The notes beneath the pieces were generated by a model, which was given only the letters and a program-made list of their open reading frames with translations, searched no databases and was not told where the DNA came from. 64,000 bases of DNA from Eledone cirrhosa (taxonomy: Eukaryota): contig OZ024758.1 in the NCBI GenBank assembly GCA_964016885.1, forward strand, positions 17,484,001-17,548,000, in the 5' to 3' direction. Positions 5,491 through 62,279 of the stretch are shown here, piece after piece (within the stretch, counting starts at the first letter, position 1; the number at the start of each line of letters is the position of its first letter). Made by a program: the position numbers and the translations under genes.

Positions 5491-6519
5491 GTATGTTTGT
5501 TTCTATTGGCCCTGCAATGATACATACTATATATAAATATAGTAAAATAAAAAATATATAATATTTATTTATACATAAAAAAATATAAATTCAATAATTC
5601 TTGAAACAAAAGAAGATTGTAAACTGACTATTGTCGATGTTGATTGTCAAATTATCGATCCAGTTAGTAATTTTCAATAGGGTGTAGAATGCATGCAACA
5701 GGAACACCTACCAATGTCCTGAAATCTATATCGCTTGATATTTTATCAACAGTATCTTTGCCAGATTCGTTTATTTTCTACAGTATTTTTTTTTCGACTA
5801 AAGAAACATTACTCTTCCATTAATATCAAATTCATTTGCTTCTGAAATAGATGTATTTATAATAACGATATTTTCATTTAAATAGTATAATAAATTTATA
5901 TATCCAACGATGATATACCCAGCCACAGATCTACACACATATATTTATAACTTTTTGATAGTTAAGTTAAACTGTCACATTTAATATTCTTACAATTATC
6001 TTCTACATTACTGCCCACATAGTATTTCATTTTATTTTATAAATTATTACTGTAATCTTTCTCTTCTCCCCTCTATTTCTTCTTCACCTTATACATACCT
6101 TATTATTTATCTCACAGTTAACTGCTATATAAGTCCTCTTTAGAACAACTTATTATACAATAAAACATTTCTCCTCACAGTTTTTCGTCTGTCCCCAACC
6201 TTATCTCTTCATATTTCAATTACATACATCATTGTTAAACACTAGACTATTTTAAAATGGATAAATATATTTTAGTATTATATTTATTAAATTATTCTTT
6301 CTTCATCTTTTATATCTCCCACTTATTTCTTGAAATCTATATTTTTTCTTTCCTATCATTTACACTTGTCATTTCAGTCCCAATATGTAACATTTTTTAT
6401 GGCATCCATTTCCAGCAACCAAACAAATTATGTATTTAATTCAAAATATTTTTTATCTTCCAATGTGAACTCAACTTATTTCAACACTTACTAGCAGAAA
6501 GAACAGATATTACATCACG

Positions 6520-8152: not shown

Positions 8153-8208
8153 ACTGCTATATATATTTCGATGATAGCCATTGAATGGCTATGACCTCAT
8201 CAGGCAGT
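8153..8208 (-). ncRNA. Type I hammerhead ribozyme motif
   Basis: Minus strand: ACTGC CTGATGA GGT C ATAGCCATT C AATGGCTAT C ATC GAAA T ATAT A TA GCAGT. All core bases present, 5-bp stem I, long stem II and palindromic stem III. Confidence 0.85.
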
Positions 8209-12087: not shown

Positions 12088-12243
12088 GTATATATATATA
12101 TGTATGTATATATATATATGTATATATATGTATATATTTATATATTTATATATATATATGTGTATATATATGTATATATTTATATATTTATATATATATA
12201 TGTGTATATATATGTATATATTTATATATTTATATATATATAT
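10530..12243. repeat. Compound (TA)n/(TATG)n microsatellite blocks
   Basis: Visible directly; source of the IYIY ORFs. Confidence 0.95.
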
Positions 12244-12455
12244 GTGAGAAAAACCACAGACCCTCCATCTCAACTCACCTTTTGAAAAGCAGAAGAACTG
12301 GAAAACCGGTAAAGGAACCAAATAAATATATATATTTAAAAAAAAAATAAGACTCCCTTTGCATTTTCGATTTCATCTCTTTTTCTTTATACTTTCACTC
12401 GTGTAAGACACCTCGGTTATTTTTCAATTTGTAAAAAAAAACCTCACTTTCTAAT
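12244..12455 (+). mobile_element. Family D short element with U3-A8 hammerhead-like core
   Basis: Near-identical copies at 21685-21902 and 61922-62132; core at 12278-12315; flanked by (TA)n. Confidence 0.75.
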
Positions 12456-12488
12456 ATATATATGTTTATATATGTATATATTTATATG

Positions 12489-21645: not shown

Positions 21646-21684
21646 AATAAATATATATGTGTATATATATATATATATATGTGA

Positions 21685-21902
21685 GATGTGAGAAAAGCCA
21701 CAGACCCTCCATCTCAACTCACCTTTTGAAAAGCAGAAGAACTGCCAAACCGGTAAAGGAACCAAATAAATATATATATTTAAAAATAAAAAAAAATAAG
21801 ACTCCAGTTGCATTTTCGATTTCATCGCTTTTTCTTTATACTTTCACTCGTGTAGGACACCTCGGTTATTTTTCATTTTGTAAAAAAAACCTCACTTTCT
21901 AA
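21685..21902 (+). mobile_element. Family D element
   Basis: Core 21722-21759: CCTT TTGAAAA GCAG AAGAA CTGC CAAA CCGG TA AAGG. Confidence 0.75.
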
Positions 21903-21972
21903 TATATATATATATATATTCTCTTTTACCTGTTTCAGCCATCCGGCTGAGGCCATGCTGGGGCACCGCCCT

Positions 21973-29298: not shown

Positions 29299-29544
29299 TT
29301 AAAGTGTAATTTTATCTGCTGGAAACTACAAATAAATCTTCAAGTCACCTTAAAAAAGACATTTTCTATATTTTTTTTTTTGTTTACATGAGCTAGTCCA
29401 GTGATGAGGGGAAGCAGCATCCAATATTATTTTCATGGTCAGAGTAAGAAAAACAATGTTTTTAAAGATACAGAGTATAATGATTTGAACTTTAATATTT
29501 GGTTTTACCTAGATTGAAATACACACATATATATATATATATAG

Positions 29545-29916
29545 TTAAAAGAATAGAGGTGTAACACACAAGTTATTATATATTGGTAAACGGAATAGAA
29601 AATGCTGACAAATTGTTCACAGTTGAAAAATGGTTTAATTAGGAATAAAAGAGTATTAGTGATTGTATGGGTTAGTATTCAGTTGTGGTTTTAAGTTTTT
29701 AAGTTTTTACCGGTTTTACCAGATCAGAGCAAACAGCACGGACACTCTATCTCAAAATTATTTTTGAAAAGCATTTAGAAATGCGCAACCGGTAAAAACT
29801 TAAAAACTTAAAACCACAACTGAATACTAACCCATACAATCACTAATACTCTTTTATTCCTAATTAAACCATTTTTCAAATGTGAACAATTTGTCAGCAT
29901 TTTCTATTCCGTTTAC

Positions 29917-29925
<9 letters not shown>
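29545..29925. mobile_element. Palindromic element (about 138-bp arms) with U3-A8 hammerhead-like core
   Basis: Arms at about 29578-29715 and 29787-29925; 29761-29797 reads TTT TTGAAAA GCATTT AG AAATGC GCAA CCGG TA AAA. Confidence 0.75.
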
Positions 29926-54496: not shown

Positions 54497-54527
<31 letters not shown>

Positions 54528-54606
54528 GATATATATATATATATATATATAGATATAGATATACATATATATATATATATATATATAGATATACATATAT
54601 ATATAA

Positions 54607-54639
<33 letters not shown>

Positions 54640-54641
<2 letters not shown>

Positions 54642-57600
54642 ACACCATCGCCCCCCGCCCCTCACCGCCCCCAACCCCCAAACGCAATCCAAAACTTCAG
54701 AGTTGGTACCATAAATGTAGGCACCCTAAAGGGTCGCGCTAACGAGGTTGTAGAAATGCTTGAACGTAAGGAGGTCGATGTTTGTTGTATTCAAGAGACC
54801 AGGTGGAGGGGTGGGTCTGCTAGGTTCATTGAGGGTAAAAAACGTTGTTATAAGCTTTTCTGGGTGGGAAACGACGATGGGCTGGGTGGAGTAGGAATCA
54901 TGGTAGCAGAAAAGTGGGCAGATAAGATAATAGACGTAAATAGAGTGAACGACAGAATAATTAAAATACGACTTGTCCTCAATAGAACTACGGTGACAGT
55001 AATATCTGCGTACGCACCCCAACCCGGACTGCCCGGCACTATAAAAGACAGATTCTATGAGACACTGATGCTAACTACCTCCCAAATATCCGACAGTGAC
55101 TATATAATTATCGCAGGCGACCTAAATGGTCACGTTGGACAACATTGTGACGGCTACGACGAAATCCATGGAGGCTATGGGTTTGGTACTAGAAATGAGG
55201 AAGGCTCCAGAATCCTGGAATTCTGTGATGCAAATAACCTAACTATCTGTAACACTAACTTCAAAAAACGTGACAATCACCTGATCACCTATAGATCCGG
55301 GGAACACACAAGCCAGGTAGATTATATCCTTACCAGAAGACGTGACAGAGTGTCTGTTGTTAACACTAAATCCCTCCCCCATGAAGAATGCACCTCCCAA
55401 CATAGACTGATAATTAGCGACCTCATAGTCAGGACGAGACGTACTCGACAACAGAAGAGGACTATCCTCAGGAGGAAAATATGGAAGTTAAAGGACCCCA
55501 CAGCCAGGAATAAATTTCAAAGCATATTACTTGATGCTTTCGACAGTAAGGAAGAACATTTAGAGTCGGACAATATAGAGGGAGAGTGGGAATTTCTGAA
55601 AGCAAACCTGCTGTTGGCGACAGACGAGGTCTGTGGCTGGAGCAGGCCTGTAGGCAGGAGGAGAGTAACATGGTGGTGGAACAGTAAGGTGGAGGGGTCA
55701 ATTAAGGCCAAAAAGCAGGCTTGGAAAGTATGGCGGGATGGGGGAAGTAGAGAGGACTATCAAGTGGCCAGGAGGGAAGCTAGGAGACAAGTGTACTTAG
55801 CAAGAAGGGAAGCTGAGGAAAGAAAGTTCAAGCATGTTCTACAACGCGATGACCAAAAACGTGAGGTGTTCAGGATTGCTAGGCAATGCGTCAAGGAAAA
55901 CCGTGATATTGTCGGGGAGAAGTGTGTACTAAACGACGATGGCACACTTGCCATCACCGACGCTGATAAGAAGGTAGCTTGGAAGTGTCACTATGAAAGG
56001 CTTCTAAATGAGGAGAATAATTGGGAGAAAGGCAGTCTCCCCCATATCGACCCAATAGAGGGACCAGCAGTGTTAGTCGAGGGGAGTATAATAAGTAAGG
56101 CAATCAAGGATATGAAGACTGGTAAGGCGGCTGGGCCTTCGGAAATAGTTGCTGAGATGCTGAAGGCATCTGGCACGGTGGGACACACCATGGTCACCCG
56201 CATAGTTAACCAAGTCGTACAAAACGGGGTTGTTCCGAAGGACTGGCATAGCAGCATCATCGTTAACTGTTATAAGGGTAAAGGAGACGCCCTAGATAGG
56301 AGTAACTATAGAGGCATTAAATTAATCGACCAGGTCATGAAGGTCACGGAAAGAGTAATAGCGCAGCTAATCAGAGAGAGAATTGACCTAGATGAAATGC
56401 AGTTCGGGTTTGTGTCAGGCAAAAGTACCACAGACGCTCTTTTCATAGTACGACAACTACAAGAGAAGTACCTAGCTAAAGGTAAACCCCTCTACTTAGC
56501 TTTTGTCGACTTGGAGAAAGCCTTCGACAGAGTCCCCCGCTCCATTATCTGGTGGGCTCTTAGAAAACTAGGCGTTGACGAATGGCTTGTGAGGGCTATA
56601 CAAGCCATGTATAAAGAAACAGTCAGCAAGGTTAGAATTAACAACGAATATAGTGAAGAGTTTAGCGTAAAAGTCGGCGTCCATCAGGGCTCTGTTCTCA
56701 GTCCACTACTATTTATTATTGCCCTTCAGGCCATAACAGAGGAGTTCAAGACAGGCTGCCCATGGGAACTCCTATACGCAGACGACCTGACACTCATAGC
56801 GGAATCAATGGCCGAGCTAGAGAAGAAATTCCAAACATGGAAGCACGGCCTAGAGTCAAAAGGACTTAAAATTAACCTGGCTAAGACCAAAGTACTAGTT
56901 TGTAGGAAAGAAAACAAGGCGGCGGTCCCTTCTGGGAAATGGTCGTGCTCGGTGTGTAGGAAAGGCGTAGGTAGAAACTCCATTTTATGTCCTAAATGCA
57001 AAGTATGGGTGCATAAAAGATGTAGTGGGATCACAGGTAGGCTAACTAAGAACATAGATTTTACATGTGGCCGGTGCTCTGGTGCAATAAGTAGCAGCAA
57101 GTGCCCACAAACTACTAGCTCTTTCAATTGCGCAGAGGGTTCTATAGAAATAGTGGACAGCTTCCGTTACCTGGGCGATAAAATCAGCAGTGGGGGAGGG
57201 TGCTCTGAAAGTACTGTAGCTAGAGTCAGAACTGGTTGGAAAAAGTTCAGAGAGCTTATACCACTATTAGCTGCTAAAGGGTTCTCACTAAAAATGAAAG
57301 GCAGGTTGTACGATGCCTGCATACGAACAGCAATGCTGCATGGCAGTGAGACCTGGGCATTGTGTGCAGAGGATATACGCAGACTAGAGAGGAACGAAGC
57401 TTGCATGCTCCGCTGGATGTGTAACAGTAATATACGTGAACGGCAAAGCATAAACGAACTAAGGAATAAATTAGAGATAAGAGGGATCAGATGTTGTTTA
57501 CTCGAGAGAAGGCTACGTTGGTATGGACACGTGATGCGCATGAAAGTCGATAGCTGTATAACAAAGTGCAGGGCAATAAAGATAGACGGTAGTCACGGAA

Positions 57601-58121
57601 TAGGCAGACCTAGAAAAACCTGGGACGAGCTGATAAACTCCGACATCACACACTTACACCTCTCCAAGACAATGTCACTGGACCGAGACCTTTGGCGGTA
57701 CTCAGTAACAGAGAAGACCCGCCTTACCTAAATATATAGTAAAACCTACTCCAGCCAGTAGGCATCTCTAACAAATACACCCCGTCCCACCACCCCCACC
57801 CGATCCACACCACCCCGTTCTATGTAAAGTTATGTTGGTGCCGCGCCATCGAGGCCGAAACAAATGAGATCGTGTAGGTGTCACGACAAAAAAACACACA
57901 GTCCACGCTGTAATGTGGCCGTGTAGGCAACACGGTAAAAACCTCCCAGACCCACACTGTAAATGTGGTTGGTGTTAGGAAGGGCATCCAACTGTAGAAA
58001 ACCTGCCAGACAGTCCTATGCGAGCAAGACAATCACTCTTGCCTCAAGTGGGACTACCCCCGTCCAAACCCATGCAAGCGTGGAACACGGACGTTAAACG
58101 CTGATGATGATGATGATGATG
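54640..58121 (+). mobile_element. Near full-length, 5'-truncated RTE LINE with 3' UTR ending in (GAT)n
   Basis: ORF above plus 3' UTR 57732-58100 ending GGACGTTAAACGC(TGA)n; (TA)n tracts on both sides. Confidence 0.9.
54756..57731 (+). CDS. RTE-clade non-LTR retrotransposon ORF (APE endonuclease + reverse transcriptase + PHD-like finger)
   Basis: 991-aa uninterrupted ORF. APE motifs [27 protein letters not shown] and SQHRL; RT motifs [40 protein letters not shown] and FRYLG; RTE-type C-terminus [11 protein letters not shown]...GRPRKTW. The frame stays open upstream to about 54639 and includes the first APE motif RVGTINV. Confidence 0.96.
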
Positions 58122-61474: not shown

Positions 61475-61921
61475 ATATATATATATATATATACTTGTTC
61501 AAGTGACAGTCATAATTTCATTTATAACCAATCAAATTGCATTTAAAAAAAAAAGCCTTCGTGAGCCACTTTTTTTATTGTCATAAAATTCTCTAAAAGG
61601 CTACAAAACAAATTCCGAAACGGGCGCGAAATTTAATGTTGTTCACGTGACAGCCTAATTTCATTTATAACCAATCAGATTACATTTTTTTAGAAAAAGC
61701 CTTCGGGAGCCCCCTTTTTTTAAGTAAAAAGTAATTCAAACATTCACATATGAAAAAAACAACCTGAGCACCCCCCTCCCCTTGTTTGAAGAACTTTGTA
61801 ATGCGAACTGGCGCGAAATTTATTATACTTATTGACCAACCATTCAAATTACTTCTCTAAAAATCTGGCGTTTCGAGCCACTTTTTTCCATATAAAACAA
61901 GTAACATTCAAAGACCAACCA

Positions 61922-62132
61922 GATGTGAGAAAAACCACAGACCCTCCATCACAACTCTACTTTTGAAAAGCAGAAGAACTGTGAAACCTGTAAAGGAACC
62001 AAATAAATATATATATTTAAAAAAAAATAAGACTCCAGTTGCATTTTCGATTTCATCTTTTTTTCTTTATACTTTCACTCGTGTAGGACACCTCGGTTAT
62101 TTTTCATTTTGTAAAAAAACCTCACTTTCTAA
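61922..62132 (+). mobile_element. Family D element
   Basis: Core 61960-61996: CTT TTGAAAA GCAG AAGAA CTGT GAAA CCTG TA AAGG. Confidence 0.75.
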
Positions 62133-62279
62133 TATATATATATATTATATGTATTATATATATATATATATATATAAAGGAACGATCGACTTTCGTCAAA
62201 TCGGACCGAGGGAACAATGTTTCCGTTGGTCTTTCCAATTGTTAATACTATCTATCAGTCGCAACTCCATATATATAAT

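Follow-up and report, generated by a model that had tools for sequence, protein, structure and literature searches.

U3-A8 hammerhead motifs in the terminal repeats of two sister Penelope-like element families of Eledone cirrhosa, one of which carries a family-wide A13C change

The window, a stretch of 64,000 nucleotides of Eledone cirrhosa DNA, contains four hammerhead-like motifs beginning at 12278, 21722, 29761 and 61960, and all four are present where a sequence-only reading of this DNA had placed them. They belong to copies of two repeat families, D and E, which by sequence are truncated insertions of elements of the type found in full at loci L063 (family D) and L082 (family E). The features are listed here by position.

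12242..12460, plus strand: terminal-repeat copy of family D, from the likely transcription start to the long 3' end, flanked by (TA)n; 96% identical to L063 over 219 nt.
12278..12315, plus strand: D hammerhead; stem I 12278-81/12312-15, U3-A8 core 12282-88, stem II 12289-301, palindrome 12305-10, cleavage predicted after 12311; this copy has private changes at C11.1 and G12 and is therefore predicted to be inactive.
21684..21908, plus strand: terminal-repeat copy of family D; 96% identical to L063 over 225 nt.
21722..21759, plus strand: D hammerhead with G12 changed to C; predicted inactive.
29537..29715, minus strand: inverted arm of family E with the long 3' end; 99.4% identical to L082 over 180 nt; it begins 8 bases upstream of the predicted cut.
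29720..29925, plus strand: arm of family E, from the likely transcription start to the short 3' end; 99.5% identical to L082 over 206 nt.
29761..29797, plus strand: E hammerhead; U3-A8 core 29764-70, stem II 29771-84, GCAA 29785-88, in which 29786 is the C13 shared by the whole family, palindrome 29788-93, cleavage predicted after 29794.
61581..62138, plus strand: longer copy of family D that includes the promoter-like stretch; 88% identical to L063 over 573 nt; TATA-like box at 61891-97, with the 5'-end cluster of the family mapping to about 61917-61929.
61960..61996, plus strand: D hammerhead with the older allele of stem I; GAAA is preserved, the palindrome is disrupted and C11.1 has become T.

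A general hammerhead descriptor run on the window recovered U3-A8 cores at 21726, 29764 and 61963 and missed the copy at 12278, which is too damaged. The same descriptor found two canonical C3-G8 hammerheads on the minus strand (8203 and 35347), which are of type I, have a long stem II and a (TA) palindrome, and belong to another repeat family that also occurs in L020 and L027. No hammerhead was present among the 150 of 238 Rfam matches that were listed for the window; when short stretches were searched, D, E and the canonical C3-G8 control at 8203 were all without a hammerhead match, so the Rfam models miss this type of hammerhead and their silence is uninformative. Private mutations around GAAA, which had been ascribed to every copy, are found in the three D copies, with GAAA itself broken in two of them, but the GCAA of the copy at 29761 is the E consensus. 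Stem II of E, first read as six pairs (GCATTT/AAATGC), is better drawn as five pairs with a 4-base loop because six pairs leave a loop of 2 bases. Six of the best 30 loci matching the E arm at 29720..29925 are 100% identical to it (the window copy itself and five others). The window further contains, at 54501-57728 on the plus strand, a 1,076-codon open frame with an endonuclease, an RT and then a PHD-like finger, a LINE-type retrotransposon.

Full elements of both families were reached through widely spaced pairs of hammerhead matches. L063 has a hammerhead at both ends, 4,915 bases apart, and L082 likewise, 4,805 bases apart, and in each case the pair encloses two reading frames. In both families ORF2 contains Pfam RVT_1 and GIY-YIG domains above cut-offs (tested in L062 and L088), and a CX2-5CxxC linker precedes GIY-YIG. 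By these sequence features D and E are autonomous Neptune-type Penelope-like retroelements of about 4.9 kb that encode an RT and a GIY-YIG endonuclease. The hallmarks of endonuclease-bearing Penelope-like elements are present, namely terminal hammerhead repeats, inverted truncated arms and an optional tail: the copies lie in (TA)n, often as back-to-back arms, and they have two 3' ends, 68 bases apart in D and 36 in E, which is the Penelope 'tail' pattern. A non-LTR retrozyme, composed of non-coding tandem units, was rejected as an identity for these repeats, since D and E encode their own ORFs and their short copies are single or back-to-back. At the junction of ORF1 and ORF2, a U UUU UUA heptamer lies at the -1 frame overlap in 13 of 13 junction matches from both families (D: L063, L064, L079; E: L082, L086, L088, L097); it is likely a programmed -1 frameshift site, and no strong downstream structure was predicted at this junction. 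The promoter-like stretch (L063:6700-7050 and L082:5780-5960) contains what we take to be CCAAT boxes and E2F-like motifs, and its E version is tandemly duplicated. In L060, A-to-G changes are clustered on one strand of three E copies, with T-to-C changes on the inverted arm, a pattern that editing of a fold-back RNA ahead of its copying would produce.

The D consensus proposed from the window copies proved to be the genuine one when it was derived genome-wide, and 27 of 38 cores, taken from the 30 best-matching loci, are identical to it letter for letter. A 33-base D pattern left open at core positions 3 and 8, so that the letters there are unbiased, matches the 3.0-Gb genome exactly at 6,275 places and has no match in the reversed control, and T3/A8 is found in all of the first 100 matches listed. 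G12 A13 A14 A15.1 is present in D, with GAAA in the 6,275 exact matches and A13 in 167 of 168 cores. Among 345 cores read from all loci, which were partly chosen by core-bearing patterns, four were ungrouped, and U3-A8 occurs in 167/168 D cores, 163/164 E cores and 9/9 cores of two older groups (F/G, described below). The motif has the fold of a minimal type I hammerhead of the dimer type, with a Watson-Crick 3-8 pair and with U4 G5 A6 and A9 present. The fold with a compensated U3-A8 pair, overlooked by a CUGANGA search, is thus borne out. A pattern combining a C3-G8 core with the D/E palindrome gave 22 genome matches versus 154 in the reversed control, none with an intact D/E stem II; one of the 22 is a D arm that is broken inside loop II and joined to other DNA.

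The two families had been described as independent, but D and E are homologous along their length. Their ORF2 (RT-endonuclease) proteins are 56% identical over 759 aa and their ORF1 proteins 43% over 298 aa, the promoter stretches are 74% identical over 123 nt, and the D repeat aligns to window positions 29718-29796 at 76% over 79 nt. As D and E are sister elements, the U3-A8 swap probably arose once and was inherited from a single ancestor. A pattern that excluded the main D/E stems gave 240 matches, mostly mutated or older D/E copies, and among them at least two further groups, all with U3-A8 (L355, L357-L359, L369 and L371; L353, L354 and L370), which keep A13, differ in stem II and have either C or U at position 17. 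L358 contains RT and endonuclease fragments that are 38-60% identical to those of D and E. Stems I and II are present with G10.1-C11.1, stem I comprising just 3-4 pairs, and both stems covary: stem I pair 3 is C-G in 162/168 D and U-A in 159/164 E cores, stem II pair 4 is G-C in 147/168 D and U-A in 159/164 E cores, and stem II pair 3 is A-U in D/E and U-A in 8/9 F/G cores. That U3-A8 appeared independently in two families, or that the motifs are chance matches, is hardly credible: stem II and the flanks do differ between D and E, as independence would have it, but the homology runs through promoter, hammerhead and both ORFs, the third relative L358 carries the same core, and the absence of matches to the reversed D and E patterns speaks against chance.

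Family E departs from the hammerhead core at a second position, with GCAA in place of G12 A13 A14 A15.1. The E pattern has 6,258 exact matches genome-wide and none in the reversed control; position 13 in the first 100 of these is C in 98, A in one and G in one. C13 is found in 159 of 164 E cores and is carried by older E subfamilies too. A13 is kept in D and in F/G (8/9 cores), so C13 of E is likely derived. In whole-genome contigs of run X1, no common alternative letter was found at E position 13, which rules out an assembly error, and in contigs of runs X1, X4, X5 and X6 none of positions 3, 8 and 13, where covered, has a common alternative letter. The contigs from X5 and X6, which have other organism codes, were rejected as evidence of cross-species conservation (they are few and nearly identical, and contamination or diet is possible). 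The E family is young and autonomous; one element (L088) has an open ORF2 of 784 codons. In run X1, the 37-base E motif has no common substitution and the remaining 201 bases of the short unit have 10, a non-significant difference (about p=0.2, an estimate) that gives no evidence of selection on the fold after A13C. A13C also creates a second six-base palindrome directly before that of stem III (window 29782-29787, all E copies), which could be an extra pairing site or a DNA-binding site.

In older mutational work, changes of A13 abolish or sharply reduce hammerhead activity. A study by Lunse et al. from 2017 reportedly covers about 150,000 Penelope-linked hammerhead variants, which could include A13C. 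The consensus of Perreault et al. lists A13 as an invariant core base in the text passages seen (PMC3088659). A literature search, mostly without subscription papers, found no report of a natural A13C hammerhead; the change does not appear in the examined parts of PMC3088659, PMC4209133, PMC3907566, PMC6155905 and PMC7151607, and a term search of PMC11014351 gave no match. By its sequence we regard E as hammerhead-derived and do not class it among working hammerheads.

In all groups stem III is a six-base palindrome; U16.1 is present, and H17 is A in D/E and C or U in F/G. Such a stem III would need a second RNA molecule. The sequence-only reading was right about the D consensus and the U3-A8 fold and overlooked this two-molecule palindromic stem as well as the host element. 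The predicted D dimer contains a long intermolecular helix through the palindrome (-22.5 kcal/mol vs -7.5 kcal/mol for the monomer), and dimerisation through the palindrome is predicted for both D and E. For E, the lowest-energy monomer fold is predicted to be a rival hairpin that buries the core.

Whether the RNA is cut should be reflected in where genomic copies begin. A pattern lying downstream of the cut served to select arms and gave 18,951 matches in D and 8,894 in E. From the first 100 places of each family, the mapping covered 100 arms of D and 95 of E, with four E regions left out. Starts fall at -76 to -64 relative to the cut in 44/100 D and 28/95 E arms, a cluster that follows a TATA-like box (at -102 or -106) by about 30 bases and is the likely transcription start, and further upstream in 29/100 D and 42/95 E arms. 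Only 3/100 D and 0/95 E arms start at the cut. Most copies of both families thus begin ahead of the hammerhead, and their main template is therefore uncut RNA.

For a larger sample near the cut, a junction search looked for arms without the sequence upstream and gave 353 matches in D and 164 in E. In each family the first 100 were sorted by hand, with windows set after the first start counts were known. The tally excluded 58 D and 70 E rows that were small indels, internal deletions, duplications or recurrences of a single event; four ambiguous E rows were set aside. In D, 23 starts lie at -2..+1 vs 9 at -9..-4 (expected share 0.41), an excess with p=0.0003-0.0006 under a uniform model with chance matching. 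E shows no such excess, with 7 starts at -2..+1 vs 8 at -9..-4 (p=0.6). When the counts are scaled per copy to the 16,351 D and 6,108 E arms that share this anchor, starts at 0/+1 number 13 in D vs 1 in E (p=0.005, or 0.017 with the ambiguous rows included). D also exceeds E at -2..+1 (p=0.026, or p=0.12 when the four ambiguous E rows are counted against the difference), and no significant difference was found for upstream starts (5 in D vs 8 in E, p=0.27) or for position 0 alone (p=0.08). The D excess at the cut corresponds to about 1% of D arms, and each of the three D loci whose start coincides with the cut has a partner arm that begins downstream of it. Scripted sorting of the first 30 + 30 junction loci misfiled several rows, and this coarse method could not confirm the hand tally. 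As a control for the cut site, the canonical hammerhead family at 8203 was considered and rejected, since (TA)n-like sequence directly precedes its cut. Microhomology accounts for some hot spots at -3 and +2, and AT-rich microhomology or RT stalling could mimic the D excess at the cut. We therefore treat the excess of D 5' ends as a genomic hint of cutting, short of proof.

The 5' ends also bear on whether the E core is active, C13 being tolerated because position 8 is A, as a second, epistatic change. C13 occurs here only on the A8 background and is fixed in young and older E subfamilies alike, and the remaining core and the stems are intact. An active E core is nevertheless quite improbable, given the lack of excess E 5' ends at the cut, the lowest-energy monomer fold in which the core is buried in another hairpin, and the 56 of 56 entries in the portion seen of a published Penelope table that keep GAAA, although the search behind that table required GAAA (PMC4209133).

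Taken together, we consider it rather probable that the motifs of D and E are type I minimal hammerhead folds in sister Neptune-type Penelope-like elements, that U3-A8 likely came to both from one ancestor, that D likely cuts a small share of its RNA as a predicted two-molecule complex, and that E is likely inactive through A13C. The inactivity of E is likely because A13 is replaced by C throughout the family. In the proposed mechanism, an internal promoter in the terminal repeat would direct transcription from about 30 bases after the TATA-like box, some 70 bases upstream of the cut, placing one hammerhead in the 5' leader (the ATG lies 169 or 192 bases after the cut) and another in the 3' repeat. 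The six-base palindrome would pair between two RNAs and form stem III. The RT-endonuclease would nick (TA)n DNA and carry out target-primed copying of mostly uncut RNA, and copying from two start points would produce back-to-back arms with two 3' ends. The D hammerhead would cut weakly and that of E not at all. Cutting may be dispensable for spread, as suggested by the presence of E in more than 6,000 copies, some with intact ORFs.

A further reading is that both hammerheads are silent, their fold and palindrome being either simply inherited or maintained for a different function, for example to hold two template RNAs together or to bind the RT. Most copies stem from uncut RNA, and both families are predicted to dimerise through the palindrome. 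A full pairwise screen of mutants of one type III hammerhead, in the portion seen, showed rescue of activity by the G3-C8 swap alone, while the other single and double changes there, U3-A8 included, were low, so U3-A8 in D may be nearly inactive (PMC9901934); minimal Penelope hammerheads, likewise, are described as cleaving weakly in vitro and only as dimers or mimics in passages of PMC4209133. Silence of both is nonetheless unlikely in our view, as the 5'-end excess at the cut is found in D alone, though E has the same sequence just upstream, and A13 is kept in D (167/168) and F/G (8/9). The favoured reading, weak cutting in D and none in E, can be extended to a bolder one that we think possible but doubtful, in which E is a natural catalytic knock-out, highly mobile because fold and palindrome hold two template RNAs for two-armed insertion, and D and E are a ready active/inactive pair. 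Its variant, in which A8 makes C13 a new working core, is less likely.

The U3-A8 pair that headed the sequence-only reading has already been published (passages of PMC3088659 and PMC4209133), and its presence here adds merely another host; the fixed A13C of E and the contrast between D and E matter more. An autonomous family with thousands of near-identical copies that have an altered core base, beside a sister whose core is intact, would allow a direct in vivo comparison. In this genome at least 12,500 motifs escape descriptors that demand CUGANGA and GAAA.

In the passages seen, Perreault et al. (2011, PMC3088659) report natural U3-A8 covariation in several examples from phage/bacterial-type collections, stated to be active in vitro; the 3-8 covariation is the same as in D/E, but A13C, unlike in family E, is not named in the text passages, figures S6 and S7 lying outside the text search. 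Cercyon Penelope-like elements of Schistosoma mansoni are described in the portion seen of Cervera and de la Pena (2014, PMC4209133) as having about 1,300 U3-A8 minimal hammerheads. They resemble D/E in being of type I, with terminal repeats, a short stem I and a palindromic stem III, and the core of Cercyon family Sm(4), UUGAAAA, is identical. D/E differ from Cercyon in lacking an additional base between A9 and G10.1, in having a palindrome of six bases and, in the case of E, in having C13. No cephalopod row is present in the portion of the table examined.

With the Neptune clade, as described in the parts seen of PMC8557442, D and E share the RT, the Cys linker, the C-terminal GIY-YIG, terminal repeats, an inverted 5'-truncated arm, an optional tail, microsatellite targets and an optional frameshifted ORF1 (clade figure legend). 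The Neptune tail is quoted there as 30-40 bases, which fits E (36), whereas that of D is longer (68). The Neptune assignment of D/E rests on the linker and the layout, and the Cys linker before GIY-YIG is known from both Neptune and Nematis (PMC8557442). The same passages state that the role of hammerheads in Penelope-like elements is unclear. In the anole Poseidon element PAc, according to the parts seen of PMC11167929, insertion of uncut RNA in vitro does not need the hammerhead, since mutants of it remain able to insert, and RNA-seq showed no ends at the cut, which agrees with the mechanism proposed here. PAc is similar to D/E in that two RT start points give rise to the tail and uncut RNA is the main template. 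It differs in having a C3-G8 core and in that the test was made in vitro only; E would be its natural, genome-scale counterpart.
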